Below, in pieces: positions 1-35,422 of a stretch of 64,000 bases of DNA; the first letter of the stretch is position 1; each line of letters begins with the position of its first letter. Source of the stretch: a virus. Location of the stretch: positions 1 to 64,000 of the IMG/VR virus record IMGVR_UViG_3300009104_000006. One strand, given 5' to 3'. The notes beneath the pieces are model-generated. The model saw nothing but the letters and a program-made list of their open reading frames with translations, was not told the DNA's origin and did no database searches. The translations under genes and the position numbers were made by a program.

Positions 1-761
1 TCTCCCCACATCACTAATTCTTCAGTAGCGAGATTTCCACCGCTCCCCGGTATGAATGGGCAACCACCCATTCCTCCAATCGAAGAATCGAATTGTTCCA
101 CGCCACAATCGAAAGCAGCACTCAGATTATCCTTCATTCTGCCTCTTCTCTTACCATGATGGAGATGAAGGGCAATCTTAGCGTCTAACTCTTCTGTCCA
201 AGCCATCGTTTTGGTGATAAGAGGAGGGTTAGCCTTGCCGACCGTATCACATAGAACAATTGTAGAGCCCAATGTATCTGCCCAATCGAGCGCCTTCTCC
301 ATTAAGTTTCTTGGAATCTCGCCTGCAATAGGACAACCAAAAGAAGTGGAGAGATATACTCTGATGTTATCCTTCGGAACACCAGCAAGAGCATGGCAAT
401 AAGACGTGAAGATATGAGACATGGTTCTTCCGTGATTTCTCGTATTGAAGTAATCAGACGGTGAAAAGAAGACATTGTATTGGGTGACTCCTATATCCAT
501 TGCTCTCTCTATACCTTTTCTATTTGGAACGAGCATTCCTAATTCGCATTGAGACTGCAGCCAAGCCACTCTACTGAAAACCACTTCGCTATCAGCCATA
601 TTTGGAACCTTATCAGGATTCACCATAGCACCGACTTCAATCTTATCAATGCCCACTTGTGCTATCTTCTTGATGAGTTCTACTTTCTTATGAGTAGATG
701 TAATAGTGTCGCTACTTTGTAATCCGTCTCTCGGTCCCACTTCGTAAATGCTGAAGTCCAT
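1..761 (-). CDS. hmgL: Hydroxymethylglutaryl-CoA lyase (DRE-TIM family), C-terminus runs off the window
   Basis: Missing from the ORF track. Manual translation from ATG at 761: MDFSIYEVGPRDGLQ...STSFGCP...LCDTVGKANP...ALHLHH...FDSSIGGMGGCPFIPGSGGNLATEEL, the hallmark HMG-CoA lyase motifs. Confidence 0.92.
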   Translation of the reverse strand, partial: MDFSIYEVGPRDGLQSSDTITSTHKKVELIKKIAQVGIDKIEVGAMVNPDKVPNMADSEVVFSRVAWLQSQCELGMLVPNRKGIERAMDIGVTQYNVFFSPSDYFNTRNHGRTMSHIFTSYCHALAGVPKDNIRVYLSTSFGCPIAGEIPRNLMEKALDWADTLGSTIVLCDTVGKANPPLITKTMAWTEELDAKIALHLHHGKRRGRMKDNLSAAFDCGVEQFDSSIGGMGGCPFIPGSGGNLATEELVMWG

Positions 762-770
762 AAAACGGAC

Positions 771-1217
771 TTAGACTGTCTTTTGATTTAGAGGAATCGG
801 CACCAGTCGTTCTCTTGGTATCGCATTAGGAAAATAAGGTATGCCTTGATACCTTTTCATATCCAATCCTCCCCCTCTTATTCCGAACATAGCAGGTGCT
901 TGATTTCTATCTTGACTTCTCCATCTGGCATACTCTGCTCCGCCTTGTGGGTCATTACTTGCATAAACGCCATGAGGATACCAATCTTGCACAGGCTTAC
1001 CTTGCAGTTGTGCTGCGGTCTGCTGCATATTCATCTGTGCTTCATATGGTAATTTAGGCTGTAATCCTTGAGTTCCAATTGCCGCAGCAGGACCAACAGT
1101 AGTCCCATGATATTGGGTTACAGGTCCATGTGGTGAGGGAAAATCGGGATGAAACTCGCCTAATGTGCTCTGACGGGTCTGTTTCAGCAAAAGCCACGCT
1201 TGGTTGAAGGGGGTCAT
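771..1217 (-). CDS. Leader-bearing ADP-ribosyltransferase-fold protein (Tpt1/PARP-like) with PIP-box-like QSTLGEF
   Basis: Start MTPFNQAWLLLK at 1217 behind a GGAGTGA SD; motifs QYHGT..AAAI..QGL, GVYAS..A.YA and IPRERL typical of HYx ART folds. Confidence 0.65.
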   Translation of the reverse strand: MTPFNQAWLLLKQTRQSTLGEFHPDFPSPHGPVTQYHGTTVGPAAAIGTQGLQPKLPYEAQMNMQQTAAQLQGKPVQDWYPHGVYASNDPQGGAEYARWRSQDRNQAPAMFGIRGGGLDMKRYQGIPYFPNAIPRERLVPIPLNQKTV

Positions 1218-1225
1218 CCGTGAGT

Positions 1226-1696
1226 TCACTCCATGACTTTGACTGGTAAGGGCGTATCACCGTGACCACGAGCGAAGAGTTCAGCCATTCTATGTCTCCC
1301 TTCATGATATGTTTCAGGCTGAGAATCGGGAAAAACATATGGCATACCGAACTTGATGTCCTCTCCCGCTTGTGCTCTGTCCATCAACTCTTGATAGAAA
1401 GTATCATCTGACTCTCTTGGAGACTTTTTTCTTCCTAATGCGTCAATATATATACCGCCCTTTTCCTCTCCAGTAGTCATTTTTCCGTATTCACCGGGTG
1501 TTATGTGCTGAATCTCCCCCTGAGGAAAATTTAGACTGTGTCCTTTACTTGGGTCATCGGGAACGTAGCCGTATACATTCTCTTGTGACCTCCAATGGGG
1601 GTCATCTTCGCCTTGTGTAACAAAATTGATGTTGGGAATACCCGTTTCATAAATTGGTGCTTTAAGTAAAGCCCATGCTTGGTCGAAGGGGTTCAT
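1226..1696 (-). CDS. Leader-bearing ParB/Sulfiredoxin-like domain protein
   Basis: MNPFDQAWALLK leader; HEGRHRMA...LPVKV resembles the ParB/Srx (D/E)GxHR motif. Confidence 0.6.
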   Translation of the reverse strand: MNPFDQAWALLKAPIYETGIPNINFVTQGEDDPHWRSQENVYGYVPDDPSKGHSLNFPQGEIQHITPGEYGKMTTGEEKGGIYIDALGRKKSPRESDDTFYQELMDRAQAGEDIKFGMPYVFPDSQPETYHEGRHRMAELFARGHGDTPLPVKVME

Positions 1697-2400
1697 TGTT
1701 GTCCCTCCATGCTAAACATTTCGGGAGTGAGTTCCAAATTCCTTTCCTTATCATATTGCCCTCGTAGTTTCACACCAACTAAATCATCCATCATTTCTTG
1801 TGTGGCCGGATGAGGATATTCACCCCGATGTCCGCGATTATCGTCATAATCATCCGTTGAAATCTGCACAGGCACTGGCTCATCACCCATCAAATTATGA
1901 ATAGCCGCCATCCTGTGTCTCCCTTCGTGACCTATAACATTCCCCCTACTCACATTAAGATTTGGAATAAAAGTGGGCACGCCCGCCCTCATATTTTCCT
2001 CAATACCCTTGCCCGTCTTTGATTCTAAATAATGGCTAATATCAAGATTACCCTTTTCGTCGGCCCCGTAATATCCCGGCTCGTTCGTCGACGCCAAACT
2101 GAGAAAATCCGAGGGGCGCATCATAACTTTGCCCGCCATCCTACCAAACCACGGACTCCCACCCATCGGAAAATAATTCGGGACAATACGTTTGCTTTCC
2201 CAATCATGCCAATCGTCCCTCCAATGACTCGGCTTCTCGCCTAAATCCCTCGTTTGTGGAAAACCCTTTTCATCAAACCATTTTTTGTCCTCTTCATCTT
2301 CACCTGAATAAATCGGCTCATCCCTATCCCAAAATTCAGTCGGCCCAACTTTGTATCTCGCCATTTTGAGAACTTGCCACGCTTGGTCGAAGGGGGTCAC
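1693..2400 (-). CDS. Leader-bearing ParB/Sulfiredoxin-like domain protein
   Basis: GTG start overlaps the upstream stop (ATG at 2403 is an alternative); TPFDQAWQVLK leader; GHEGRHRMAAI...VPVQI. Confidence 0.6.
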   Translation of the reverse strand: MTPFDQAWQVLKMARYKVGPTEFWDRDEPIYSGEDEEDKKWFDEKGFPQTRDLGEKPSHWRDDWHDWESKRIVPNYFPMGGSPWFGRMAGKVMMRPSDFLSLASTNEPGYYGADEKGNLDISHYLESKTGKGIEENMRAGVPTFIPNLNVSRGNVIGHEGRHRMAAIHNLMGDEPVPVQISTDDYDDNRGHRGEYPHPATQEMMDDLVGVKLRGQYDKERNLELTPEMFSMEGQQ

Positions 2401-3044
2401 CATCTAAAACCACCTCTTTTAATCCGCTCCTCTTCCTCACGTCGCCATTGACGATATGAGTCTGCGGCAGGATTCTTTACTTTCACTCTTTCATCATCAC
2501 GCGCTTTCCCCCATTCATGAGAATGACTCACCGTAGACAACGGATGCCTCAAAGCCTCGGCAGGGTCATGCCTTGAAGCCATTAGTTCATGGACTAACTG
2601 TAATTGAACCATAGGCTTAACATCCCCTTGTTTAAGACTCGCGTATGCATTTTTGAAAGCACTAATCATCTCAGGTGTATTCTGTATAGCCTCATGGGTG
2701 CTTTCATGAGCGGCTGCATCTATAACATTCTCCATCAAAGGTTGGTCATATTTCTTGTCATAAGTGTCCCAACTGGTATTTCTAAAATCATCAATCTTGG
2801 GGTCATAATTTATCCCAAAACGACCATCTACACCCTCATAATCGCCCGCCTTATTGGGCCAACCTCTATGTGCTAAATTGACTCTACCTACCGAATTACC
2901 TGTTACATCGGTGTTATAGAAGCCCGGTGAAAAATCTCGGATAGGCAACGGATAGTGTTCTATCTCATCCTTAAACGGACTCTCTTCCGAATCAAGGAGA
3001 AATTCGGTTTTCAGCAAAAGCCACGCTTGGTTGAAGGGGTTCAT
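2397..3044 (-). CDS. Leader-bearing putative zincin metallopeptidase
   Basis: MNPFNQAWLLLK leader; AAHESTHEAI (HExxH) with a downstream HELMA glutamate. Confidence 0.55.
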   Translation of the reverse strand: MNPFNQAWLLLKTEFLLDSEESPFKDEIEHYPLPIRDFSPGFYNTDVTGNSVGRVNLAHRGWPNKAGDYEGVDGRFGINYDPKIDDFRNTSWDTYDKKYDQPLMENVIDAAAHESTHEAIQNTPEMISAFKNAYASLKQGDVKPMVQLQLVHELMASRHDPAEALRHPLSTVSHSHEWGKARDDERVKVKNPAADSYRQWRREEEERIKRGGFRW

Positions 3045-3697
3045 CTTTGCCCCCTATGCGGCCAATTACTTCTATCCTTGTGTTTCGCCCACATTCTTTC
3101 AGCATTATTGGTTTGGTTATCATCGCGCACAATTACATGACCTCCTCGTGTCTCCCTGTCGAGAACATCAGCAGCCATATCATACATGGCAGTCCCATGA
3201 CCCTGATGTTTGTAATTATCCAACATTATCATATAATCCATCAAACTGATGTCTGAATGTTCAGGATTATCTTTTTTCCAATCTTCAAATCCTTTCACTC
3301 TTCTCATTGGTCCAGCATCCTTGACTCTCGGCATACCTATCATGTTCCTGTTGGCGAAGTTATTATCGCTTTCTTGAGGTCGAAAGGAAGCCTCTGCTAT
3401 TGAGTGCCTGTAACCGTCATCGACCCATTCTTTTGGCACATCGCCCACATCATGATTAGGTGGTAAAATGTTCATGTTTATCGTCGGATATGAAAATCTC
3501 CCATACGCCGTGTCTGTTTCGGCATGATTGATGTCAGCCACCATCGGGTGCATCTCGCCAGTCTCAGGATGCTTGAAGTCAGCGACATAGCGAACGTTCT
3601 CATCCCCCTCATTATCTTGCCACGTGTCGCGCCTTTCTAAACTACCATCGACCATAGGTGCTTTGAGAAAAGTCCACGCTCGGTTGAAAGGGGTCAT
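3041..3697 (-). CDS. Leader-bearing GNAT acetyltransferase
   Basis: MTPFNRAWTFLK leader; YKHQGHGTAMYD (acetyl-CoA motif A) and QTNNAERMW. Confidence 0.65.
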   Translation of the reverse strand: MTPFNRAWTFLKAPMVDGSLERRDTWQDNEGDENVRYVADFKHPETGEMHPMVADINHAETDTAYGRFSYPTINMNILPPNHDVGDVPKEWVDDGYRHSIAEASFRPQESDNNFANRNMIGMPRVKDAGPMRRVKGFEDWKKDNPEHSDISLMDYMIMLDNYKHQGHGTAMYDMAADVLDRETRGGHVIVRDDNQTNNAERMWAKHKDRSNWPHRGQR

Positions 3698-5214
3698 TGG
3701 AAGCCTCCGGGTATTCTCTCAGCCATATCATCTCTGGAAATCGGTCCCAGCACGTGGTTGCGATTCTTATCATAGAAGGTATACATCCCATCTCTCTGTT
3801 CCCATCCCATTATGTTGTCTGCTGCACCATCAGGCATCAATCCTTGAATAAATGCATTTGGTAAATGCCCCCACTCTCGGTTGTGTTTGTTTCCATAGTA
3901 TTGCGGGGTCCAGTTTTTCGGCACACCCCCAGTAACGAGTTGCTCTGGTGGAAAATCCCCCTCAATATAGGCCTCTGCTCCTTCTGCAGAATGCCCAGTG
4001 TTAGCAAATTGCCCCGTCATTTTAGACGGGTCTCCTCTTACTCCTACCCATTGACTGACCTCACTATCGTTTCCTCCAAAGCCCACTGGCTTTACACGGT
4101 CTGTTTTTTCCTTCGATGAGTCACGGAGTCCTCCAAATTCCCTGCTTAAGTAGGCATCAACGTCATCAATTGCAGGCGCAGGAGACATAAAATTACCAAG
4201 ATAAGGATTTTCTTCGTCATGATAAGTCGAATCACCTATCTGGACCGGTGGCCCCGCTTCAAAAGGCATCCTCTTGCCATAATCTACTCTGCGAGGGTCA
4301 TGCTCGTGCTCCCACATCTGAGAATCTTCATGCATTTCGCGCCCTTTAATTCCCCGTTTTCGCGCATCCATCGCATGTTCGGGGTTCATATATCGTAAAG
4401 CGCTAACTGGTTCCACGCCCTCCCAACCAGTAGTCCTATCGAGACTCCAATCGTGCTCAGGTAAAATGCTATCACGAGAAGTCTCTGGATTGAGAATGGG
4501 GCTAAAAGGCATAGCATAATGCCTCGGTAGTTCTCTGTCTTCGCTAAATCCTAACTCTTCTAACTTGTTCCAATTGTTATTGATATCGGGATTAAACTTA
4601 ATTGAGTTGGCCCGCATCTCATCATAGGTTATCTGCCCCGCATGATAAGCACGGAGAGACTGTTCTCTTTTGTTAGCCAAATCTTCCAGATGAGCAACTT
4701 GTTCAGGAAGAGTTCTCGATACTGGTTGGTCTCTTAGATACCATTTTTCTTGAGGCGTAAGAAGTAAGCCATCTTCACCAAACCATTCCTTCCGTTGTTT
4801 AGATGTCGGTGAGCGATACGAAATCCGCTCTTCATTCCCTCTAAGCCTGTGTAGCCTTTCCGCCCATTCCCTTGCTTTTGCTTTGTTTTGTGCGTCAATA
4901 TGGTCCTGAGTCACTGGGAACGACAAACCGTCACCTTGATTCAGAAGCCTCTCGTGCACAACCTCATCGAGCCCCCAAGGCGCAAATGTCTTTAGTTCAT
5001 CCATCTCATTTGCGAACTCGTGAGGGTAATGTTCGTGATTTTTGGGCAACAAATACATCTTTACCGAGTTAGGAACCTCATCGTAGCGACGAAACCTCTC
5101 TAATTTTTCAAAAATTTTATTGTCCCTTCTCGGCACTGGTTTTGGCTTCATTCCCCATTGGTCTAACGTAGTCTGAGCCTTCAGAATATCGAATGCACTG
5201 TCGATAGGGTCCAC
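3694..5214 (-). CDS. Leader-bearing ~500-aa protein with PIP-box-like QTTLDQW and a possible ART-like C-terminal domain
   Basis: Likely GTG start at 5214 gives MDPIDSAFDILKA, a leader variant (ORF track starts at 5271); ALRYM..., GNFMSP, WVGVRG and AEAYIEGDFPPEQLV resemble ART-fold strands. Confidence 0.55.
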   Translation of the reverse strand: MDPIDSAFDILKAQTTLDQWGMKPKPVPRRDNKIFEKLERFRRYDEVPNSVKMYLLPKNHEHYPHEFANEMDELKTFAPWGLDEVVHERLLNQGDGLSFPVTQDHIDAQNKAKAREWAERLHRLRGNEERISYRSPTSKQRKEWFGEDGLLLTPQEKWYLRDQPVSRTLPEQVAHLEDLANKREQSLRAYHAGQITYDEMRANSIKFNPDINNNWNKLEELGFSEDRELPRHYAMPFSPILNPETSRDSILPEHDWSLDRTTGWEGVEPVSALRYMNPEHAMDARKRGIKGREMHEDSQMWEHEHDPRRVDYGKRMPFEAGPPVQIGDSTYHDEENPYLGNFMSPAPAIDDVDAYLSREFGGLRDSSKEKTDRVKPVGFGGNDSEVSQWVGVRGDPSKMTGQFANTGHSAEGAEAYIEGDFPPEQLVTGGVPKNWTPQYYGNKHNREWGHLPNAFIQGLMPDGAADNIMGWEQRDGMYTFYDKNRNHVLGPISRDDMAERIPGGFQ

Positions 5215-5353
5215 TGCACTCACGAATGACGGAAAGCGGTCAACCTCTTTGACGTTTCGATGAATAAACAATTGATAAATGAAACAAAGTCGCTTTGCGC
5301 GTGGATTATCTGTTTTTGTGAAAATTTTCTCCAGCGCTGTGCGTGACTATAGA

Positions 5354-5753
5354 GCGGTATGCTATTGCGGTATGCCCTATTGCTCCGGCTAAGGCTGCGG
5401 TATGCCCTGCGGTATGCACCACTGCGGCGGTGCAGTTTCCACACCATCTTGCGGTATGCCCTGCGGTATGCTTGCGGTATGCTATTGCTTTCGTGCGCTC
5501 ATATGACCGGCACACCCGCAAGCGGTGTGCCTCTCGCGTGTGCCGCAAGACGGCACTACGCTCGCACTATGCACCCATATACGCTCGTTTGCTAAGGGTC
5601 AAGGCTACAACAAAACCGCTATACTGCGCGGCTACGCCTTAACATCAACGCCAGCCCTTGCACCGCTTTGGATTCCCCACCCATGTGGTTGGTCGTATCA
5701 AATACACCTCTCCCCTACGCGGTTTGCTTTTGCGGTATGCTACTGCGGTATGC
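5354..5753 (+). repeat. Array of short GCGGTATGC repeats (9 exact copies plus variants)
   Basis: Exact copies start at 5354, 5367, 5397, 5409, 5451, 5463, 5474, 5732 and 5745; variants GCGGTGTGC and GCGGTTTGC. Confidence 0.9.
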
Positions 5754-5823
5754 TCCGAATCCTCTCGCATCACGCCTTGCGTCGCACGTAAGAGTAAGTA
5801 AATCCGCCCCCTTCTTTCATGCT

Positions 5824-5846
5824 TTGGTATTTAAACGAAGATAGTA
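5824..5846 (+). promoter_or_regulatory. Conserved 23-bp motif, copy 1 (putative viral early promoter)
   Basis: TTGGTATTTAAACGAAGATAGTA, identical in 9 copies; upstream of the 5875 gene. Confidence 0.8.
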
Positions 5847-5874
5847 TAGTGTATTTGCCGGACAACGGCGGAGA

Positions 5875-6636
5875 ATGAAAATGAATATGACAAGGAAACT
5901 GACAATGATTATGAAAGATTTGGTGGATGCTCTCATCCGAGTATGGGGGGGAGAGAGTATAACTCTCGACTTCGACTGCTCCGGTGCGGCACCCGTCAAG
6001 GTTGGCTCAACACGAGCCGATGGAACGATTGTAGGCCCATACAAGCCTACCAAGACCCAAGCCAAGAATGCCCTGCATAGATACATCAAGGATGCGGTTG
6101 CTAACCAAAAGGCAGCCAGCAACCTGCCGGTCAAGTGCGACCATGCTGGTGCAATCAAGGCGAGCAAGGTCAAATTCACACCATCAGCAAAGACGGGCAA
6201 AGTGCCTGTGCTTGCTTACCACATGAACAAACTGCACGGCGATGCGAAGCGTGCTTTGAAGGCGAGCAAGCGACAGGCTGGACTTGAGAAGGCCATCGCT
6301 GACGGCGGCGTGTGGATAGCACGCGGTGTCTTCGACAAGAATGGCGACATTCGTGGCTACCCAAGCCAAAAGAAGGCAGCCGCAGCATGGTGTCGCACCT
6401 TCATCCCACCTACGGATGGAGTGCAGTGGTTCGAGCGAGAGGATGCAAAAGACCTACGAAAGGTCGGTCGCACCCACACTCAGCGAGCGGCTTGGCTCAT
6501 CATGGATGGCCTCACCATCACCACTGAGGGCGGACTCAGCCAAGACGAGGTAGTCCTCATGGCCGCAAAGGAGTTCGGCTTCAAGGGCAAGACGGTGAAG
6601 GGCGCACAGGCGTTCCTTGACCGCAACGTCGCTTGA
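5875..6636 (+). CDS. Basic Lys/Ala-rich hypothetical protein, stand-alone transcription unit
   Basis: 253-aa ORF behind motif copy 1 and a GGAG SD; C/G-rich third positions unlike neighbouring genes; no family recognised. Confidence 0.75.
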   Translation: MKMNMTRKLTMIMKDLVDALIRVWGGESITLDFDCSGAAPVKVGSTRADGTIVGPYKPTKTQAKNALHRYIKDAVANQKAASNLPVKCDHAGAIKASKVKFTPSAKTGKVPVLAYHMNKLHGDAKRALKASKRQAGLEKAIADGGVWIARGVFDKNGDIRGYPSQKKAAAAWCRTFIPPTDGVQWFEREDAKDLRKVGRTHTQRAAWLIMDGLTITTEGGLSQDEVVLMAAKEFGFKGKTVKGAQAFLDRNVA

Positions 6637-6659
6637 ATAGGCTCACACCGACTACGCAA

Positions 6660-6891
6660 CCGCCCCCTGTCCAAGCGGCAGGGGTGCGGCAACACCCTCA
6701 CAAACAGGGGGGCAGGGCGCGACCAGCCAGCGATGGCGGCGATGCCCTGTCCTCCTACCCACACGAACCTGCTGATGTCCTTTGGTGGTGCTTAGGACTT
6801 GCCCGTTGGCTACAACCAACGGGAGCGGCGTGATATGGGGAGCGCACCTCCCACCCTCGCCCCGCACTCGCGGGGTGGGGGCATTTTTTTT
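6660..6891 (+). ncRNA. Putative structured ncRNA or structured 3' UTR (at least 5 stems)
   Basis: Stems 6660-6689; 6706-6719/6743-6756 (14 bp, all 3 non-Watson-Crick pairs are G-U) capped by GCCA-GCGA-TGGC (GNRA loop); 6777-6798; 6802-6823 (perfect 8 bp); 6854-6881. Confidence 0.6.
6854..6891 (+). terminator. GC-rich hairpin followed by T8
   Basis: CCCTCGCCCCGC-ACTC-GCGGGGTGGGGG then CA and T8 at 6884-6891. Confidence 0.7.
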
Positions 6892-6924
6892 GGCTTGGCT
6901 TCATGCTACACGCGCGGGCTAAGT

Positions 6925-7039
6925 CAGACCGCAGACTGTATGGTATCTGAGAGCAGACCGCAGCCGTATGCGTGGGCTATCTGAGCAGACCGCAGGGCAT
7001 CTGAGAGCAGACCGCAGGGCATCTGAGAGCAGACGGCGG
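6925..7039 (+). repeat. Tandem ATCTGAGAGCAGACCGCAG(GGC) repeats
   Basis: CAGACCGCAG at 6925, 6954, 6986 and 7008, variant at 7030; GCAGACCGCA is the reverse complement of TGCGGTCTGC, one mismatch from the left-array unit TGCGGTATGC. Confidence 0.85.
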
Positions 7040-7325
7040 GGCTGGTCTTCGTCATTGATGTTCTTCGTTCCACAACCGCAGGCGGTTTATCGTGGCTCAC
7101 AACATCACTTGCCTCGCCCACCCATACGGTTGGTATTCTCATAGAATATCCTCTCACTATCGGAGAGAGATACACGCCCAGTTAGCCTTGACTTAAGTAG
7201 CGATGCTGATTTCGGTGTGTCCTATGCTCCCCCGCATGGTTGTGTATCGCTGATGATTATGCAGACTGTGCTAATTTGCACATACGCACATGAGGACAGC
7301 GCGGATTCGGACAGACGGCAGAACC

Positions 7326-7440
7326 TTTCCGAAGTTTCCTTAGTATTGTCTAAACAAGGAGAATAATAGTGTAGTATAGAGAGGTAGTAGGACAATCGAA
7401 CTGTCCGATTGTATAGACAAGACAATAGAATCATCGGAAA
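7326..7440. repeat. 32-bp imperfect inverted repeat, candidate origin or protein-binding site
   Basis: 7326-7357 TTTCCGAAGTTTCCTTAGTATTGTCTAAACAA vs reverse complement of 7409-7440 TTTCCGATGATTCTATTGTCTTGTCTATACAA (25/32 identical); the same element recurs at 44313-44390. Confidence 0.7.
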
Positions 7441-7532
7441 ACTATGGTATCACACGCACAAAAACAGGATACCACGCTCATGTTGCTGACCCTCAATCCA
7501 AAACCTCGATGAAATCTTGACGAAAAAAGGCT

Positions 7533-7555
7533 TTGGTATTTAAACGAAGATAGTA
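7533..7555 (+). promoter_or_regulatory. Conserved 23-bp motif, copy 2
   Basis: Exact copy heading the run of small early genes. Confidence 0.8.
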
Positions 7556-7566
7556 TAGTGGAATTG

Positions 7567-7698
7567 ATGCTGAATAGTATTACTGAACAAAGAATGGAGT
7601 TGCCCTACCCTTGCACTTGTGCAACAGTAGGGATAGTGAAAGCCAAGTATAGAGGAATGGTTCTATGCACACACTGTAAGATACGGAGGGATGAATGA
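7567..7698 (+). CDS. Small Cys-rich hypothetical protein
   Basis: 43-aa ORF directly after motif copy 2; ATGA overlap with next ORF. Confidence 0.45.
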   Translation: MLNSITEQRMELPYPCTCATVGIVKAKYRGMVLCTHCKIRRDE

Positions 7699-7856
7699 TG
7701 CCCGCCATCGGTAAGATGAGGACACGCTGGCACATCACCTGCTTGTGTGAGCCCACCTACACCAACCAAATGAGGAAGGACAAGGTGCTACACCGCATAG
7801 ATATGCACATCGAAACGTGTCCTGTCTATACTTGGATAATGGAGGGGCGACCATGA
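7695..7856 (+). CDS. Small hypothetical protein
   Basis: 53-aa ORF with ATGA overlaps at both ends. Confidence 0.5.
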   Translation: MMPAIGKMRTRWHITCLCEPTYTNQMRKDKVLHRIDMHIETCPVYTWIMEGRP

Positions 7857-8164
7857 ACAAAGATGAAAATAGGAACACCCCTTATCACAAACTTGAGTGG
7901 ATTCACTTCGCAATTCAAGAGGCTATGAATGGAAACATAGAGGAACTCGACCGAGCACTCCCTCTCGTTGAGGACTTAAGGGAATACTCCATTCAAACAC
8001 GACTCAAAGCAAACGCACCACTACAACTCGCGGAAGTCAATCGGTTGCGTGAATTGTTAAGTGAAACAGAATACCGATTGGAGATAGCCGAAGATGTATT
8101 GGGTCGCTCGGATTGGAATACTATTTACCGTGAGATTATTGACGAGGATGGTGGAGAAGAATGA
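7853..8164 (+). CDS. Hypothetical protein with APLxLAEVxRLR module
   Basis: ATG 7853 overlaps upstream stop; shares NAPLQLAEVNRLRE with the 14.4-15.7 kb paralogs; ends GGEE. Confidence 0.7.
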   Translation: MNKDENRNTPYHKLEWIHFAIQEAMNGNIEELDRALPLVEDLREYSIQTRLKANAPLQLAEVNRLRELLSETEYRLEIAEDVLGRSDWNTIYREIIDEDGGEE

Positions 8165-8403
8165 ACGAAGACGAACACAAAAAGTTAGATGCTTTGATTG
8201 ACGCACACTTCAAGGTGGTGGATATAGATTCAGCCATCCTTGATTATGATAACCATTGGACTTTTGAGGAATACAAAGACATGGTGATGCACGCCGATTG
8301 GCTCATCGATTTATCAAGTGGAAGGACATACCTATTATCTCGCAGATGGGAAGACGACATTCAAGCACGACTACAAAAAATAAAGGAGAGTGAGGAGGAA
8401 TGA
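8161..8403 (+). CDS. Hypothetical protein
   Basis: ATGA-coupled, ends EEE. Confidence 0.65.
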   Translation: MNEDEHKKLDALIDAHFKVVDIDSAILDYDNHWTFEEYKDMVMHADWLIDLSSGRTYLLSRRWEDDIQARLQKIKESEEE

Positions 8404-8636
8404 GCGAGGACAAGCGCCATCCTCCATACACTATGCTCACCATTCGTGAGGTCATAGACACGATGCGTCTTCTCATAGAGAAAGAGGACTGTGAATTAGA
8501 TACGCCCATCGTGTGGTATCACTTAGCAGATGATTGCTTGACCGCTATGACACATGAGTGTTGTCATGTATTTCATGAGGATGAGTCATGGGTGGAACTG
8601 ACTCTCCATAACCCACATGGAGGCGAGGAAGAATGA
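8400..8636 (+). CDS. Hypothetical protein
   Basis: ATGA-coupled, ends GGEEE. Confidence 0.65.
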   Translation: MSEDKRHPPYTMLTIREVIDTMRLLIEKEDCELDTPIVWYHLADDCLTAMTHECCHVFHEDESWVELTLHNPHGGEEE

Positions 8637-8923
8637 GTATGATGAATGAAACAGATGAACACAACAAATGGAAGCATGGATATTGGAGATTGAAGAAAGA
8701 GAACAGCACGCTTAGGCTTAGGCTGGAGGTAGCCACGACGCGCATTGATGAATACAAAGAAGAACATGAGAGAGAAGTCATAGAGTTATGCGAGGAAATA
8801 GATGGGCTACGAAGGCAAGTGATAGAGGCAAGGGCAGGCGCAAGGATGGTTATGCACTTGACTCGTGAAGGCACACTCACTCCTGAAGATGGCGAGTGGC
8901 TGATTGATGAGGTGTATGTATGA
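8633..8923 (+). CDS. Hypothetical coiled-coil protein
   Basis: ATGA-coupled ORF with heptad-like middle. Confidence 0.65.
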   Translation: MSMMNETDEHNKWKHGYWRLKKENSTLRLRLEVATTRIDEYKEEHEREVIELCEEIDGLRRQVIEARAGARMVMHLTREGTLTPEDGEWLIDEVYV

Positions 8924-9096
8924 GCGATTGCAGAACTGAGAGAGTGAGTATCACAGACCACCATTGGGAGATGAGTGATATGTTTTGGGATGAGCCATAC
9001 GAACAGTTCCGAATAACGATTACGTGTAGTAAATGTGGGCGCTCAGGATGGGGCTGGGTTGATTTGCCTGCGATGATAGGAGGCGAGGAAGAATGA
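8920..9096 (+). CDS. Small CxxC hypothetical protein
   Basis: 58 aa, below the ORF-track cutoff; ATGA overlaps; ends GGEEE. Confidence 0.6.
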   Translation: MSDCRTERVSITDHHWEMSDMFWDEPYEQFRITITCSKCGRSGWGWVDLPAMIGGEEE

Positions 9097-9398
9097 GCAG
9101 CCACACTGACCCCGAAGTGATAGGAACGATTTGGTTTGACGATGCTTCGTCTTACCCACAGGCCTTGTCATTCATCGAAGAAGTATCTGAATTACTATGG
9201 GGTGCTAACGATGATGGAACAAGAGAACCTTACTCGATAGAAGAAAGCATTGAAAGGATGAAGGAATATACTCTCAAGTCATACGCTTGGGATTTGTTAG
9301 AGGAACACTTCTTTGTTGCTGATTGGGATATGGATAACGACACGGAAGAAAAGTATGAGATGCGCGAACTGATGAACCGACTGATGGGAGGCGAGTGA
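9093..9398 (+). CDS. Hypothetical acidic protein
   Basis: ATGA-coupled ORF. Confidence 0.65.
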   Translation: MSSHTDPEVIGTIWFDDASSYPQALSFIEEVSELLWGANDDGTREPYSIEESIERMKEYTLKSYAWDLLEEHFFVADWDMDNDTEEKYEMRELMNRLMGGE

Positions 9399-12071
9399 AT
9401 GATTACACCAAACAAAGACGACATGATGAGGATGGTAAGGGCGTTCGTGTCCATTCATCACGAAGTGAATAGCATTCACATCAAAGACGACATTGGACCT
9501 AACGCACCGGATGCTCCCTTCTTCAAGCGAGTGGCTGCTAAGGATGAGATGGATGAGGAAGACTACATCGAGATGAGCCAACGCTTCCGCAAATACATCG
9601 GCACTCAATTACCTGAGATTATGGAGATAGCGGGCTACGCACCTACTACTGATTGGGGTAAAGCATTAGATGGACTACATCAGATAGGTGAGGAAGCGAA
9701 AGAGAAGAGGCTTGAGCGTGAGAAGATACAACGAGAGTATGCAAAGAAATTGAGCAAGGGTGAGCAGAAGGTGAATAGTTATGTGGATGACCTCATTACC
9801 CAGAAGGGTTGCGAGTCATACTTCACACCTCTATCCGATAGCGAACTGAAGTCCTTGAAGAATGAACTCTTAGACATAGGTATAGATGTAGCGTCAGTCA
9901 ATGAGTTAGTGGATGGTGCTAACGAGAGTGGGTTGAGTAAGTTAGAATACTTCAAGTCGCAGTTCTCTCTCGACGTGGAGGAATACGAAGAAGTATGGTA
10001 TAGCAAGAACGACTACCAACAAAGATACCCACGTAAGAGTAAGAGATTGAAACTTGTATGGAAGGGGCGCAACACCAAGTTATACTATGACCTCAAGACG
10101 GCAGTGCCTTTCCCTTCGTTTAAGTATCAAAACTATACCATGTCTTGCTCGCTCGATAGCATGGTTATCGAGAAGGTATCTTCTATACTATCCAAGCATG
10201 GCTACGACACAAGCAAACTCGATGTTGTCGGTGCATCAATCAAGACTACTGAACCTAAGACTAACAGTAGTGGGTATGCAGTGCGTTTGAAGGGCGATGT
10301 TTTGTTCCTCAAACTACCTTACAACGATACTACGTGTAGGAATGTAGTCAAAGGACTCAACGGGCGTAAGTGGATTCCCGATGCTAAACAATGGACTGTT
10401 CCAATAAGCGAGGCTAATATCTTCATCAAGAAACTCAAAGAGGCAAGTGAATGGGATGATAACCCCGCCTCCTTACTTACTGAATTGGAAGGGATAGATG
10501 AACTGAATGATTACCTAAAGGGTAAGGCTGAACGCATAGCAATCAGTGGTGCAGCCACGCTCACAGATGATAAGGTAGTCAAGGAGATGGAGAGTAGGCT
10601 GGCTAAGATATTTCCAGACGGTCGCACACTCTATCCATTCCAATACGCAGGCGTGCGCTTTGCTGAGTTAGCACCTAACAAGTCGTGTCTAATTGGAGAT
10701 GACATGGGTGTAGGTAAGACAATTCAAGCACTCGCTTATGCTGCACTGCATGAGGAACTATGGCCTGTGCTTGTAGTATGCCCTGCGAATGTGAAATACA
10801 ATTGGCTCAAGGAGATACAGACTTGGCTTCCACACGTAGGTGTTCAAGCAGTGAAGACAGGAAAGGAAGACATAGAATGTGAAACATTCACCATCATTAA
10901 CTACGACTTGGCGAAGCGACAACAGGATAATCTTCATGCACTCGGAGCGAAACTAATCATCTTCGATGAATCTCACTACCTCAAGAACTCAAAGGCACAA
11001 AGAACACAGGCTTGCGTAGCATTAGCAGGAGAGGCTGACTCGGTGTTGTGTCTAAGCGGCACAGCCATTACCAACAGGCCTGTTGAACTATTCACTACGC
11101 TGGAAATGATTAGACCTGCTGAATACAAAGGGAACTTCTTTCAGTATGCAAAGAGATACTGTGGTGCTGAACAAAATAGATGGGGATGGGATTTCACAGG
11201 AGCATCTAACATCGAAGAACTACATGAGAAACTACGTGATTGTATGATTCGCAGACTCAAGAAGGAAGTGTTGGATGAACTACCAGATAAGGTGCGTCAG
11301 TTTATTCCCGTCGTTCCTAATCAGAAAGAGATGGCGGCATACAAGCGAGCACATAGAACATGGATGACTGACTACGCTCACTACAAAGCAGAAGGGAGAA
11401 TCCCTCTTGGCTTCGTTCTCAATATGCTGACTGACTTACGCCACCATGCGGGAACGCTCAAGGTAGGAGCGACCATTGATTGGGTGGCTGACTACAAGGA
11501 ACAGAATGAAGACAAACCAATCATCATATTCTATCATCACAAAGATGTAGGGGCTGGCTTGTTAGACATGATGACTAACGATAAGAGATACAACCACAAG
11601 AGATGGAGGGTAATAGCAGGCGGCACACCATCAATCAAGCGACAACAATATGTTGAACAGTTCCAAGCAGGTATGTTAGATGGATTACTTTGCTCCACGA
11701 TAGCAGCAAAGGAAGGACTTACTCTTACTGCCGCAGACACAGTAGTGTTCATCGAGCGCGAGTGGGTGCCCGGATGGGAAGAGCAAGCCGAAGATAGAAT
11801 CAACAGGATAGGACAGGACAACGACACAGTGTGGGCGATTTACTTATCGGTCGTAGGAACGATAGACGAAAAGTTCGACAGGATAGTGGAGGAAAAGAGG
11901 CGCATAACTTCCGCCGTTCTCGATGGTGGAGATGTAGGAGAAGATAGAGCAGGGATTGCGATTGCCCTGCTCAAAGCGATGGTCGATGCCGGAGAAATAC
12001 CTGCCGATATGCTGAAGCATATGGGTAGCAAACCAAAGGCACACGATAACAAGGAGGAAGAAGAAGAATGA
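9399..12071 (+). CDS. SNF2/SWI2-family helicase (SMARCAL1/HARP-like)
   Basis: GDDMGVGKTIQAL, IIFDESHYLKN, LSGTAITNRP, QAEDRINRIGQ; HARP-like segment RKWIPDAKQWTVP. Confidence 0.92.
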   Translation: MITPNKDDMMRMVRAFVSIHHEVNSIHIKDDIGPNAPDAPFFKRVAAKDEMDEEDYIEMSQRFRKYIGTQLPEIMEIAGYAPTTDWGKALDGLHQIGEEAKEKRLEREKIQREYAKKLSKGEQKVNSYVDDLITQKGCESYFTPLSDSELKSLKNELLDIGIDVASVNELVDGANESGLSKLEYFKSQFSLDVEEYEEVWYSKNDYQQRYPRKSKRLKLVWKGRNTKLYYDLKTAVPFPSFKYQNYTMSCSLDSMVIEKVSSILSKHGYDTSKLDVVGASIKTTEPKTNSSGYAVRLKGDVLFLKLPYNDTTCRNVVKGLNGRKWIPDAKQWTVPISEANIFIKKLKEASEWDDNPASLLTELEGIDELNDYLKGKAERIAISGAATLTDDKVVKEMESRLAKIFPDGRTLYPFQYAGVRFAELAPNKSCLIGDDMGVGKTIQALAYAALHEELWPVLVVCPANVKYNWLKEIQTWLPHVGVQAVKTGKEDIECETFTIINYDLAKRQQDNLHALGAKLIIFDESHYLKNSKAQRTQACVALAGEADSVLCLSGTAITNRPVELFTTLEMIRPAEYKGNFFQYAKRYCGAEQNRWGWDFTGASNIEELHEKLRDCMIRRLKKEVLDELPDKVRQFIPVVPNQKEMAAYKRAHRTWMTDYAHYKAEGRIPLGFVLNMLTDLRHHAGTLKVGATIDWVADYKEQNEDKPIIIFYHHKDVGAGLLDMMTNDKRYNHKRWRVIAGGTPSIKRQQYVEQFQAGMLDGLLCSTIAAKEGLTLTAADTVVFIEREWVPGWEEQAEDRINRIGQDNDTVWAIYLSVVGTIDEKFDRIVEEKRRITSAVLDGGDVGEDRAGIAIALLKAMVDAGEIPADMLKHMGSKPKAHDNKEEEEE

Positions 12072-12322
12072 GTAATGAAATTACAAGAATGAATGAATGG
12101 AAAATAGTATGCTGCGAGTGTAAGGCAGAAGATAGCATAATGTCAGACGAGAGAATCTATGCGACCTACCGAGTGAATGCTTGTGCTACTGATGAAATAG
12201 ACTATGACAGCGCAAGCGAGAAGATATACACCTCAACGACTGAGGGCTACTTCTGTGAAGAATGTCAGGAGAACTTCAGCCATGATGAGGTATTAGATAT
12301 GATTAGAAAGGTGAGTGAATGA
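12068..12322 (+). CDS. Zn-ribbon protein
   Basis: CCECK and CEEC pairs. Confidence 0.65.
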   Translation: MSNEITRMNEWKIVCCECKAEDSIMSDERIYATYRVNACATDEIDYDSASEKIYTSTTEGYFCEECQENFSHDEVLDMIRKVSE

Positions 12323-12648
12323 TTAACACAAATGAAGAAATGAATGTGCCTAAGACATGGGCAATAGATGTGTATGCTATGTGGCGTATGCTTGACCGAG
12401 ATGAGTGGCTTGCCGATAGGGTTGCCGATACCATACAAGACATTGATGAGGTGCTTACTGCAAGACAAATCATCAATGTATTGTTTGAAAGGAACAGGAA
12501 CTTAGCCGAGATGACTCTCGACTATATGTCTGACCTACATGCCGATGCATCAGGCTCTTGGGATGATGATGGAAAGGATAACAACATGATACTACTTTCT
12601 TGGGATGCCTACTACGAACTATACCCTGAAGAAAAGGTGAGTGAATAA
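12319..12648 (+). CDS. Hypothetical protein
   Basis: ATGA-coupled ORF ending KVSE like the preceding gene. Confidence 0.65.
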   Translation: MINTNEEMNVPKTWAIDVYAMWRMLDRDEWLADRVADTIQDIDEVLTARQIINVLFERNRNLAEMTLDYMSDLHADASGSWDDDGKDNNMILLSWDAYYELYPEEKVSE

Positions 12649-12649
12649 T

Positions 12650-13780
12650 ATGAGCAGCAATACAGGAACATGGTATAAGAGAAGTAGCACAGGTAAGATG
12701 GTTGAATGGTCGGGGTGGTCGCAAGGCGACACCTACTACGTCAAGAGTGGGCAAGTCGAAGGGAAGAAGACTACTACTGCTGGTGTAGTATGCACAGGCA
12801 AACAGGGGCGCAGTGATAGCGAGCAAGCGGAGTTCCAATTGAATGCTAAACTCAACAAGAAGAAAGATGACGGGTATCTTAACGACTACGATAAAGCCTT
12901 GACTCATGTAGTAATGCTACCAATGCTGGCTCACTCATACAAGAAGAGAAGCCACAACATCTCCTTCCCTTGCATAGTGCAAAGGAAGTTCGATGGAGTG
13001 CGGTGCTTCGCCATGCCGGATGGTAGGCTGCTCTCTCGTAAGGGCAAAGAGTTCCCTCATCTCAATCACCTTAGACACATACACATACACGTGCCGAAGA
13101 TTAACAATAACCCAATAGTGTTTGACGGTGAGTTATACTCAGACCACATGACCTTTCAAGAGTTAGTCGGATTAGTCAAGAGAGAGGCACTGAAGGCTGG
13201 CGATAAAGAGAGGATGAAACTAATCAAACTACGAGTGTATGATTGTTATGATACGGAGAACATCGACACCCCCTTCAAGGGTCGTGCTACTTTGATTCAA
13301 TGGATGCTATCTCGAAATTATATTGGAACTAATGTGTTGCGAACCAGAACAGCCATGCCGAAGGGTTGGGAGGCAGTGGAGAACTTCACTGCTAACAATG
13401 AGGATGACATATACAGGTTGCAGAAACAGTTTATCGAAGAAGGCTACGAGGGTGCTATGGTTAGGAATCTTCACGGCGCGTATGCGCTGGGTAAGAGGTC
13501 AGCCAATCTTCAGAAGGTCAAGACCTTCCTCGATGGTGAGTATAAGATAGTAGGATTCACCGAAGGTGAGGGTGGAGAAACAGGCTGCGTGATATGGAAG
13601 TGCAGCACTGCGAGCCATACCTTCAACGTTAGACCGAAAGGCACACGTGAGCAAAGAAGAGTATGGTTCAACAATGGTAATTCATACATCAATAAGATGC
13701 TTACGGTTAAATATCAAGAATTAACTGATGACGGCATCCCCCGCTTCCCTGTGGGGATAGCAGTGAGGAACTACGAATGA
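12650..13780 (+). CDS. lig: ATP-dependent DNA ligase (compact viral type)
   Basis: QRKFDGVRC (motif I), FDGELY, VYDC, GYEGAMVR, LQKVK, GIPRFPV; AGGTGA SD before ATG 12650. Confidence 0.93.
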   Translation: MSSNTGTWYKRSSTGKMVEWSGWSQGDTYYVKSGQVEGKKTTTAGVVCTGKQGRSDSEQAEFQLNAKLNKKKDDGYLNDYDKALTHVVMLPMLAHSYKKRSHNISFPCIVQRKFDGVRCFAMPDGRLLSRKGKEFPHLNHLRHIHIHVPKINNNPIVFDGELYSDHMTFQELVGLVKREALKAGDKERMKLIKLRVYDCYDTENIDTPFKGRATLIQWMLSRNYIGTNVLRTRTAMPKGWEAVENFTANNEDDIYRLQKQFIEEGYEGAMVRNLHGAYALGKRSANLQKVKTFLDGEYKIVGFTEGEGGETGCVIWKCSTASHTFNVRPKGTREQRRVWFNNGNSYINKMLTVKYQELTDDGIPRFPVGIAVRNYE

Positions 13781-14224
13781 GAGAACTATGCGACTGCTGG
13801 CCTACTGAATGGCATCAAGAGGTATATGCTGATGGTGCTAACAAGTGTAAGCACTGCGGTTTGCTCATGCCTAAGTTTGCGAGTGTGAATTGATGATGCA
13901 GTGTAGTGTGGATGGTTGTTATCGTTGGGCTAATACGCTCACAAGACTGTGCTACTACCACTTAACTTGGGGAGGCGAAGAAGAATGATGGCTGAGATTA
14001 TACTCACCCTTGTTGCTATCGTTTTCACGTGGTTCTTCGCCTATACTTTTCACTTCCTTTACACTAATAGTGTGAGTTTCATAAACATCGAAGAAGAATG
14101 ATACGCGCCTACAATTGATAGTAGTCTGTTGCGTTGTTCATATACTCTCGCAATCGTATATGCTGATGTATGTATTCGCGCATGACATTTGATGATAGTC
14201 GTTTTTTTTGGTGTTGAAGAACCT

Positions 14225-14247
14225 TTGGTATTTAAACGAAGATAGTA
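14225..14247 (+). promoter_or_regulatory. Conserved 23-bp motif, copy 3
   Basis: Exact copy, preceded by a T8 run at 14202-14209 (likely terminator). Confidence 0.8.
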
Positions 14248-14266
14248 ATAGGAGAATGAGAACAAT

Positions 14267-14443
14267 ATGAAAATAGGTAAATGGATTAACTTCGCAAGGT
14301 GGAGTGATAGAGCAAACTGCATAGGCAAGGGGCGCATACGTAATTGCGAAGTGCAAGATGATGCTCTAATGATTGATATGACGCTCGATGGTGTGCGCTA
14401 CATCGGCACGCTATACCAATACAAGGAGGATGAAGAAGAATGA
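14267..14443 (+). CDS. Small hypothetical protein
   Basis: 58 aa MKIGKW...KEDEEE; ATGA overlap with next gene. Confidence 0.6.
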   Translation: MKIGKWINFARWSDRANCIGKGRIRNCEVQDDALMIDMTLDGVRYIGTLYQYKEDEEE

Positions 14444-14757
14444 TTGATACACACAAATACGAAGGACACACGGAAGGACTGTGGGAATACAATACCGACG
14501 ATGATGGTTGGACACTTGCGGCTATCCATGAACGGAACGACCCTGACCGAGATGAGTTCATGGTGCTGATGACAAAACCGAATGGCGACCCTTACCTCAC
14601 AATGAATCCTGACCTCGCACTCATAGCAGACGCACCACTACTCCTTGAAGAAGTCAAGGACTTACAGAAGAAATTAGACAACCTGCGTGAGTATTGTCAT
14701 GCAGAAGGTTATGACATTTTCAATTGGGAAGTAAAGAACATTGAGGTGATTGAATGA
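14440..14757 (+). CDS. MIDTDKY-family paralog 1
   Basis: MIDTHKYEGHTEGLW...IADAPLLLEEVK. Confidence 0.7.
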   Translation: MIDTHKYEGHTEGLWEYNTDDDGWTLAAIHERNDPDRDEFMVLMTKPNGDPYLTMNPDLALIADAPLLLEEVKDLQKKLDNLREYCHAEGYDIFNWEVKNIEVIE

Positions 14758-14936
14758 TTGACACAGACAAATACAAGGAACTAAGAGAAGAAATAGAAAT
14801 GACTTTTCAGATTTACCAAGAGGATAAAGAGGAACTATTGAGAACAAACGGTGAAGAAGTTTGGGGTTGGATTCAAGCACTTGATTATGTCTTATATCAG
14901 ATGGATTTAGCAGAAAAGGAAGGTGAAGAGGAATGA
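14754..14936 (+). CDS. MIDTDKY-family paralog 2
   Basis: MIDTDKY start, GEEE end. Confidence 0.65.
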   Translation: MIDTDKYKELREEIEMTFQIYQEDKEELLRTNGEEVWGWIQALDYVLYQMDLAEKEGEEE

Positions 14937-15463
14937 TTGACACAGACAAATACCATAAGGCGAAACTCACAGAAGGGCCGTGGAAATACAAACGAGAAGA
15001 ATTGGAAGGAGATGGAAATTACCCTCGTGCTGATTTCAGGGCATACATTGTTGCCGGTCAAGATAGAATTGCTAAGATGATAACCCACACATACTACGAT
15101 GCACAACTCATGGCAGACGCACCACTACTACTCGCAGAAGTCGAGCGGTTGCGTCATCTATGTGATACATTATTCATCTATGCACATAACATTGAAACCG
15201 GACAATCCACCATCGAGAAATCCAATGGAGAGCCTCTAAGCACAATAGATTTTGAGAAAGATATGACTTGGGTGAATTGGGTGAATCAGCCCAAAATAAG
15301 CAACATCAAAATCGGGGGAATACCCCACCTAAAGATTGTCGATGATTCTATCCATTCAGACGGTGAGGCGGATTATGTCTTAGCGACTGAGTGTAAAGCA
15401 GGTCATTTGGTTGGGGAAATAGGATATGAGGATTGTCCTAATTGTGGTGGTGAAGAAGAATGA
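14933..15463 (+). CDS. MIDTDKY-family paralog 3
   Basis: MIDTDKY...TEGPW...MADAPLLLAEVERLR...CPNCGGEEE. Confidence 0.7.
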   Translation: MIDTDKYHKAKLTEGPWKYKREELEGDGNYPRADFRAYIVAGQDRIAKMITHTYYDAQLMADAPLLLAEVERLRHLCDTLFIYAHNIETGQSTIEKSNGEPLSTIDFEKDMTWVNWVNQPKISNIKIGGIPHLKIVDDSIHSDGEADYVLATECKAGHLVGEIGYEDCPNCGGEEE

Positions 15464-15750
15464 TTGACACAGACAAATACGAAGGACACATAGCAAGCGA
15501 AGGACAGACTTGGGTTTGGTCTAAGTGGATGCTAAAGAACGCTGAAACGATTGACCAACATGAGGCTACCTCCGCACTATTGAATGACGCACCACTACTA
15601 CTCGCAGAAGTCAAGCGGTTGCGTGAAGTAATAGATACATCACTTGAGTATATCAAGCGACCCGATATTGATGATGACTCACACACATTGAGTGTTGTGA
15701 AGAACACATTGAGTGTTGTGAAGAAGATATTGGAAGGTGTTGAGGAATGA
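15460..15750 (+). CDS. MIDTDKY-family paralog 4
   Basis: MIDTDKYEGH...NDAPLLLAEVKRLRE; internal 21-bp tandem duplication at 15683-15724. Confidence 0.7.
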   Translation: MIDTDKYEGHIASEGQTWVWSKWMLKNAETIDQHEATSALLNDAPLLLAEVKRLREVIDTSLEYIKRPDIDDDSHTLSVVKNTLSVVKKILEGVEE

Positions 15751-16235
15751 TTGACGAAGATAAACCAAAGAGGCTTACGCTTAAGGAGAACACGGCAAGG
15801 CATAGGAAGGAGCATCCTAACGATATTCTCTCCTTCTCGGAAGGTAAAATCGAGGATGAGTATTCGGGTATTTTCAGTAGCGTGACCCATTACGGGACGC
15901 TACATGTGCCAAGCAAGAAAGAATTGAAACCTAAGCGAAAGAAGAAGATGCTCTCACTCATTGAGAAACATAACCGAGAGGAACTTACATTATTTAGCAG
16001 ACGTGAATTACTATTGTTAGGACACGAGTGGCTTCGTATGTTCAGACACAATAGCGAAATCGAAGCACCGGATATGCCCATAGACAATAGTGGAGAGGTC
16101 ATAGATTATCCCGCAGGGAGAGGTCGCGGAAAAACAGCGATAGCCGAGTGGTTGTGTAAATACGAGTCGCACTACAATGAACTACAGATGAAAGCGGATT
16201 TAGATGAGAGAATAGAACAAACTCTTTTGGGATGA
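15747..16235 (+). CDS. Hypothetical protein
   Basis: ATGA-coupled, MIDEDK start. Confidence 0.65.
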   Translation: MIDEDKPKRLTLKENTARHRKEHPNDILSFSEGKIEDEYSGIFSSVTHYGTLHVPSKKELKPKRKKKMLSLIEKHNREELTLFSRRELLLLGHEWLRMFRHNSEIEAPDMPIDNSGEVIDYPAGRGRGKTAIAEWLCKYESHYNELQMKADLDERIEQTLLG

Positions 16236-16244
16236 AAACAACCT

Positions 16245-16267
16245 TTGGTATTTAAACGAAGATAGTA
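16245..16267 (+). promoter_or_regulatory. Conserved 23-bp motif, copy 4
   Basis: Exact copy upstream of the 16293 gene. Confidence 0.8.
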
Positions 16268-16292
16268 TAGTGAAAACAGTGGAGATAGAAAG

Positions 16293-35408: not shown

Positions 35409-35422
35409 AAGGAGAGAAAAAA

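Follow-up and report, generated by a model that had tools for sequence, protein, structure and literature searches.

A hairpin-rich tail that may form the 3' untranslated region and terminator of an isolated orphan gene in a magrovirus-like marine virus

What is the strongly folded stretch that follows an isolated gene at a strand switch in a 102-kb marine virus genome? The window analysed here is the whole stretch of 64,000 nucleotides (nt) formed by positions 1 to 64,000 of the IMG/VR virus record IMGVR_UViG_3300009104_000006, and the locus in question consists of a promoter-like motif, a gene for a protein of 253 amino acids (aa) and a non-coding tail rich in hairpins that ends in a run of eight T. 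A first-pass annotation made from the letters alone had proposed that some 230 nt of this tail form a new viral non-coding RNA (ncRNA) expressed first in infection. The reading preferred here, which we consider reasonably probable, is that the tail is a modular structured 3' untranslated region (3'UTR) with a terminator, rather than a free-standing ncRNA of 230 nt. In the window the order is TATA-like motif, gene, hairpins and T8, with 255 non-coding nt between the end of the open reading frame (ORF) and the end of T8, and motif copy 1, the ORF, the stems and T8 are all located where the first-pass annotation had placed them. The features of the unit, all on the plus strand, are the following:

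5823-5849, plus strand: copy 1 of the 27-nt promoter-like motif, whose TATA-like core TATTTAAAC starts at 5828
5875-6636, plus strand: gene for the Lys/Ala-rich orphan protein of 253 aa, with GGAG at 5870-5873
6650-6659, plus strand: conserved single-stranded motif 5' of hairpin H1, GACTACGCAA in the window and GACNGACNNACGCAA in relatives (alignment of 8 loci)
6660-6689, plus strand: hairpin H1, the conserved inner hairpin, 12 bp with 1 G-U
6710-6752, plus strand: hairpin H2, lineage-specific, 18 bp with 2 G-U and a GCGA tetraloop at 6730-6733
6758-6849, plus strand: 92-nt strain-specific block with the hairpins of a "three-way junction", absent from the close relative L002
6854-6881, plus strand: terminal GC-rich hairpin, 12 bp (10 G-C, 2 G-U) with an ACTC loop
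6884-6891, plus strand: T8 run, at which the transcript presumably ends; it starts 2 nt after the stem

The tail and its terminal hairpin

The homologous gene was found in 15 further loci, 13 of which are complete, giving 14 complete loci with the window. The closest is L002, a 116-kb metagenome contig of about 90% DNA identity, and twelve complete IMG/VR loci carry distant homologs (L006-L011, L017, L020, L028, L048, L061 and L078); L003 is a 1-kb fragment, and L037, which is cut inside the gene, was counted among the 15 further loci and left out of the complete ones.

The region 6637-6895 folds with -130.6 kcal/mol against -107.3 +/- 5.1 kcal/mol for 200 dinucleotide shuffles (z -4.6), none of which equalled it; z for the tail region lies between -4.6 and -4.8, and the minus strand gives z -3.1. 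Better folding than that of shuffled sequence is common to the tails of all 14 loci (z -3.0 to -7.7). That no consensus of tRNA, SRP, RNase P or ribozymes is recognised in this fold, as the first-pass annotation had stated, agrees with a search of Rfam, which at gathering scores gave no match in the window or in the 13 related loci and, at a relaxed threshold on 5200-7900, only chance-level C/D-box matches outside the region; additionally, ARAGORN detected no tRNA or transfer-messenger RNA. The minimum free energy (MFE) structure of the window's tail contains H1, H2 and a weak branched part at 6753-6823 that includes an 8-bp hairpin at 6802-6823. The closing helix of this multi-branch part and the "three-way junction" described earlier are present in the MFE structure and appear only partly in the centroid, and the junction is absent from L002. 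The tails of relatives are 84-184 nt long (84-164 nt in the more distant ones) compared with 255 nt in the window, and only H1 and the end hairpin are common to them.

The end of the tail is its most regular part. A GC hairpin of 8-14 bp with a loop of 4-5 nt lies 0-2 nt from a run of T6-9 in all 14 loci, so that the traits of intrinsic terminators (a GC-rich stem with a short loop, and immediately behind it a T run on the coding strand) are found at this site. Its sequence differs widely between loci, and 7 of 8 aligned pairs are changed on both sides, a covariation score that none of 500 shuffles reached; pairing is retained in 85% of cells compared with 68% in shuffled alignments and 43-61% with a slid partner. 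Within window positions 1-20000, 6854-6891 is the best terminator-like site, and the 102-kb genome contains just three runs of at least seven T, at 6884, at 14202 (fused to a copy of the promoter-like motif) and at 35417 (minus strand).

The middle of the tail, on the other hand, varies between strains. H2 occurs elsewhere only in L002, with a replaced apex and without the GNRA loop, and the 92-nt block is missing there altogether, in a relative with flanks of 93-99% identity; the middle of the tail is dispensable. The block is flanked by near-identical 10-mers (CCTCCYACCC, at 6751-6760 and 6847-6856) and is kept in a second strain represented by a 982-nt DNA contig of run X4. Apart from the H2 of L002, nothing resembling H2 or the 92-nt block was found elsewhere in the genome or in any other locus, and a mobile repeat element was ruled out, since H2 and the branched block have no copies in either. 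It was also observed that the 21 nt of the H2 apex of L002 (L002:5827-5847) recur exactly within the gene of that relative (L002:5230-5250), in the part coding for the invariant CDHAGA motif, as if a small templated patch had been copied from the ORF into the tail.

At the other end of the unit, the 27-nt motif has nine copies in the window, all on the plus strand and between 5.8 and 44.3 kb of the 102-kb genome, compared with none in shuffles; after copy 1 the next is at 7532-7558, with none from 5849 to 7532. Relatives carry TATATAAAG-type boxes at the position equivalent to copy 1. The TATA-like core, the lack of a conserved bacterial -10 element at these boxes of the relatives and the lack of enrichment of sigma-70-type promoters (24 found compared with 31.5 expected) are the grounds on which the motif is read as a putative archaeal-type promoter. 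Nothing supports the proposal that the unit is expressed first in infection, and the same motif heads eight other units. In 13 of the 14 loci neither the tail nor the final 300 nt of the ORF contains an AT-only run of at least 6 nt, which leaves no place for a second TATA-type promoter, so that the structured RNA, if made, would be the 3' end of the mRNA.

From these sequence features we infer that transcription would begin at the motif and terminate at the U run, and that the stem-loops would have a stabilising effect. A monocistronic mRNA starting from the TATA-like motif at 5823-5849 would encode the 253-aa protein and would carry 6637-6891 as its untranslated 3' tail, a row of independent GC-rich stem-loops in three parts: the single-stranded motif with H1 close behind the stop codon, additional strain-specific hairpins (H2 and the 92-nt branched block), and the hairpin with U8 that would end the transcript. 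The end hairpin and its U run would stop transcription ahead of the downstream repeat arrays and boxes and of the next promoter and would thereby insulate them, and the stem-loops would shield the 3' end from exonucleases, giving a long-lived mRNA.

Some points weigh against this reading. The available contigs from RNA libraries, one identical to 5920-6190 and others, from a relative, that cover the 5' region and the ORF at its 3' end, prove neither transcription nor transcript ends; no contig of two RNA runs lies over 6637-6846, although contigs cannot show absence, and run X16 contains one weak contig match (<90%) at 6847-6882 with unrelated flanks. Additionally, archaeal terminators have been reported as U-tracts that do not need a hairpin (PMC8716108), so the strict retention of the hairpin in an archaeal-looking virus calls for a further role. 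Finally, a plain stabiliser hairpin does not explain the conservation of H1 at the DNA level.

Hairpin H1 and the competing readings

The single-stranded motif and H1 are present in 8 loci. Both sides are changed in 9 of the 11 pairs of H1, a covariation score that none of 500 shuffles reached and that also exceeds the slid controls, and at 6668/6680 the U-A pair of the window is replaced by C-G in L002 and in two DNA contigs of run X4. The covariation among homologs that the first-pass annotation had named as a check is found for H1 and the end hairpin, whereas the relatives are too few for H2 and the branched part. When 680 kb of virus DNA, both related and unrelated, was scanned with a covariance model of motif and H1, these 8 sites alone were recovered, each downstream of a homologous ORF. 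The H1 region is under sequence-level constraint, since its DNA is 80-86% identical in comparisons of loci that have proteins of 29-31% identity and otherwise diverged flanks. As a DNA pattern, the window's H1 gave no match in viral contigs, and the pattern of the motif gave 47 matches, among which the gene is carried only by the already known loci.

Such conservation would suit a different reading, in which motif and H1, alone or with the end hairpin, are a specific RNA signal, either a protein-binding site or the body of a processed small RNA. The bound protein would possibly be the SAP-tailed one encoded just upstream, as self-regulation or as part of a ribonucleoprotein (RNP). This reading is tentative, with a modest chance of being right. 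It agrees with the identity of the H1 region described above and with the single-stranded state of GACNGACNNACGCAA, kept in front of H1; with the occurrence of motif and H1 as a single copy and only behind the gene family of the 253-aa protein; with the bias of H1 toward G-U pairs on the plus strand, worth 4-12 kcal/mol in L007, L008, L009, L010 and L017; and with a contig of run X4 in which a window-type H1 stands in otherwise different surroundings. It is harder to reconcile with the half of the family (L006, L011, L020, L028, L048, L061 and L078) that lacks the motif and has unrelated inner hairpins, and with a protein whose only recognisable feature, a SAP/HeH-like tail, is of a DNA-binding type. 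The fuller proposal that motif, H1 and the covarying hairpin-U tract make up a virus-specific RNA signal read by the SAP-tailed protein, as a self-regulating RNP or a processed tail RNA, is rather doubtful; such a signal would act in an archaeal virus with a host for which termination requires no hairpin.

The hairpins might also act as DNA, as part of a replication-origin, packaging or genome-end region marked by the repeat arrays and near-palindromic boxes that surround the unit. In the window these are:

5341-5495 and 5715-5754, plus strand: left arrays of the TGCGGTATGC unit
5676-5700, plus strand: near-palindromic box, left; boxes and lineage-specific repeats lie at the same place in relatives
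6924-7042, plus strand: right array of inverted units
7117-7141, plus strand: second near-palindromic box

All 14 complete loci share the same order: a near-palindromic box CCCACCCRTAYGGNTGG, lineage-specific short repeats, a TATA-like box, GGAGG, the gene (homologs of about 250-290 aa), a hairpin-rich tail of 84-255 nt with at least one inner hairpin that ends in T6-9, repeats in inverted orientation and a second box. In each of them the unit is the first plus-strand gene at a strand switch, with left neighbours on the minus strand and right neighbours on the plus strand, from which at least 0.7 kb without a large ORF separates it. The description of the locus as an isolated first unit thus holds throughout the complete loci, and the unit serves as a landmark for the virus group.

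This setting, a conserved block of box, repeats, gene, repeats and box at a strand switch in all relatives, is what favours a DNA-level role, together with the minus strands of the 14 loci, which also beat shuffles (z -1.7 to -9.2), and a loose likeness, by eye only, of the motif before H1 to the lineage's repeat unit. The strand bias of the hairpins makes such a role less likely. The 160 bp of the end hairpins of the 14 loci include 18 G-U pairs on the plus strand compared with 2 on the minus strand, and the inner hairpins 35 compared with 18, an excess on the sense strand that is not expected of a DNA cruciform or of a symmetric protein site. The end hairpin is more stable on the plus strand in 13 of the 14 loci (summed energies of -337 compared with -278 kcal/mol), and a difference of 4-12 kcal/mol in the same direction is found, besides the five H1 hairpins already named, in the H2 of the window (-29.9 kcal/mol on the plus and -23.4 on the minus strand) and in inner hairpins of L011, L028 and L078. 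The bias was judged hairpin by hairpin; counts over whole folded regions (59 G-U on the plus and 64 on the minus strand) do not separate the strands, and that measure was dropped. The claim that selection acts on the plus-strand RNA therefore stands for the conserved hairpins, with their G-U bias and the T run on the coding strand, and does not extend to the 92-nt block, whose hairpins show no plus-strand bias. Moreover, it is always the coding strand on which a T run comes after the hairpin, and stable GC-rich hairpins are the opposite of an unwinding element. Action of the hairpins as DNA is accordingly seen as unlikely.

A free-standing ncRNA gene, some 230 nt long and under a promoter of its own, as in the proposal of the first-pass annotation, is very unlikely. 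The strong fold speaks for it, and in the absence of matches to known families it would be a new RNA; however, the interval from the ORF to the hairpins contains neither a promoter motif nor an AT-rich stretch, as a separate gene would need, and H1 begins only 24 nt past the stop codon. The whole fold is likewise not conserved, given the shorter tails of the relatives, and a single RNA of 230 nt with one conserved architecture does not fit L002, where 92 nt are missing and the H2 apex differs. Least probable of all, and regarded as refuted, is a small protein encoded by the 66-aa ORF at 6633-6833 or by an antisense ORF. Both strands have open frames, but stop codons are scarce in GC-rich DNA, the L002 frame stops after 10 codons, its open frames start and end elsewhere, indels of 15, 6 and 92 nt between window and L002 break the frame, PHROGs gave no match, and the coding conservation of 6633-6833 that would have spoken against an RNA is thus lacking.

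The protein, the repeat-rich block and the virus

The gene may have a different start (ATG at 5881 or 5911). A 6-nt tandem repeat of AATGAA with about 7 copies at 5874-5916, at which contigs from other samples are broken or different, codes for the MKMNM... N-terminus, and the Met at 5911 may be the conserved start. Five close homologs of the protein besides its own sequence share 55-80% identity, and a profile search gave 38 cluster representatives, all of 150-320 aa; longer fused forms were looked for and none was found. The protein has no match in Pfam, PHROGs, PDB sequences or the ESM Atlas. Its AlphaFold2 model has a mean confidence score (pLDDT) of 89.9 with an alignment of 30 sequences, but Foldseek searches with the model against PDB and BFVD gave no match, and the best Z in an exhaustive structural search (VIA-align) was only 3.6. 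The C-terminal helix-loop-helix aligns with the SAP/HeH tails of relatives, several of which have a textbook SAP/HeH motif; the last two helices of the window protein, 223-233 and 241-252, align to the SAP part of a relative. One of 30 family members has a Pfam SAP match (1.2e-09), while the window protein itself has none. This tail is the one clue to the protein and points to possible DNA binding.

The G+C content of the gene is high, at 55% compared with 46%, and recent transfer was rejected as an explanation, the high G+C being a family trait (homologs 46-66%, their loci 43-53%). Between the window (5900-6500) and L002 the gene has 63-85% DNA identity per 100 nt and 77% protein identity, whereas the non-coding DNA on both sides is 93-99% identical. 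This suggests diversifying selection or cassette exchange restricted to the coding part.

The block of box, repeats, promoter, gene, tail, repeats and box (window 5300-7560) may be an origin or genome-end region that includes the gene of the protein binding to it. The repeat unit varies by lineage, being TGCGGTATGC in the window and of GCGTAAC/GCGTAATGC type elsewhere, and the box CCCACCCRTAYGGNTGG is shared. Between the second box and the next promoter, a conserved non-coding stretch with (A/G)TGAGGACAG at its end lies at about 7260-7300 of the window; it occupies the same place in L006-L010 and is present in most relatives. The 55.8-kb contig of another relative, L004 (IMGVR_UViG_3300025128_000049), stops at a position equivalent to about 5804 of the window, directly before the promoter motif of the unit, which may be an assembly break at a point of strain divergence or a hint of a physical genome end. 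Further downstream, two small ORFs (115 and 80 aa) at 7857-8399 are missing from L002, which has an insertion of about 490 nt near 8600-8700, so that strains vary by indels in the early region.

The source record is 102,093 bp long, is rated complete and has no terminal repeat. It codes for a family B DNA polymerase, an SNF2 helicase, an ATP-dependent ligase, a clamp-loader-like AAA+ protein, a Cpn60/TCP-1 chaperonin and tail proteins; among GenBank phages the best matches of the polymerase, with 24% identity, are haloarchaeal tailed viruses, and blastn of 5200-7900 against the same phages gave no match. The public runs that contain the window stretch are marine metagenomes. Magroviruses have been described as presumed viruses of marine group II archaea (PMC5434244), and a marine genome of about 100 kb with this gene set and a polymerase nearest to those of haloarchaeal viruses agrees with that description. 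The genome thus looks like that of a magrovirus-like marine virus of archaeal type, with a presumed archaeal host. Locus searches with the single protein and with the first alignment found no relative in viral contigs, and the alignment likewise found none in prokaryote genomes. By term search, the original magrovirus paper (PMC5434244) does not contain 'promoter', 'non-coding' or 'repeats', and a paper on Poseidoniales viruses does not mention terminators, hairpins, promoters or intergenic elements.

Significance and comparison with known systems

Magrovirus-type viruses are abundant in surface oceans, the viruses and their hosts are uncultured, and their gene expression is almost uncharted. 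The present comparison defines a group-wide landmark consisting of an isolated gene at a strand switch, a TATA-like putative promoter and a bacterial-looking hairpin and U run as probable terminator, to which one clade adds an RNA hairpin conserved in sequence (H1). It offers a handle for annotating such genomes and for probing the orphan protein and the repeat-rich region, and it makes it possible to ask if hairpins contribute to termination or to the stability of RNA in an archaeal context. The idea of a large novel ncRNA at 6637-6891, attractive at first sight, is corrected as well. If the fuller proposal of an RNA signal were true, motif, H1 and hairpin-U tract would represent cis-regulatory RNA of a new class, carried by the abundant viruses of marine group II archaea.

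Several known systems resemble parts of the unit. Like the intrinsic (Rho-independent) terminators of bacteria and phages, the end of the tail has a GC hairpin of 8-14 bp with a loop of 4-5 nt, 0-2 nt from 6-9 U, on the coding strand just after the gene, with a stem kept by compensatory changes. Unlike them, it stands in an apparently archaeal virus, and archaeal terminators have been reported as hairpin-less (PMC8716108). The hairpin-U site of the window is, in addition, the only such site in the genome.

Stem-loops that stabilise mRNAs at the 3' end, or act as retroregulators, include REP-type hairpins and the lambda sib site. The viral tail resembles them in that at least one stable stem-loop stands between the stop codon and the presumed end of the transcript, the number varying from strain to strain; it differs in being a single-copy element rather than a dispersed repeat and in the conservation of H1 in both sequence and shape. 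CpxQ is a bacterial small RNA that derives from an mRNA 3'UTR and shares the terminator of that mRNA. As in RNAs of this type, a conserved inner hairpin and a single-stranded motif lie upstream of the gene's own terminator-like end, whereas the host of the viral tail is probably archaeal and no target was found.

At the level of the whole block, origin regions in which repeats surround an initiator gene offer a parallel, as with archaeal ORB boxes beside orc1/cdc6 and plasmid iterons beside rep. Opposed repeat arrays and palindromic boxes similarly bracket the gene of a probable DNA-binding protein at a strand switch, although the 253-aa protein, unlike those initiators, has neither an AAA+ nor a Rep domain and no known fold. 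In kind, then, the tail, which as an element and as a module is absent from Rfam, is a terminator joined to a 3'UTR stem-loop array, and its main interest lies in H1 as a conserved element and in a bacterial-style terminator hairpin in an apparently archaeal virus.

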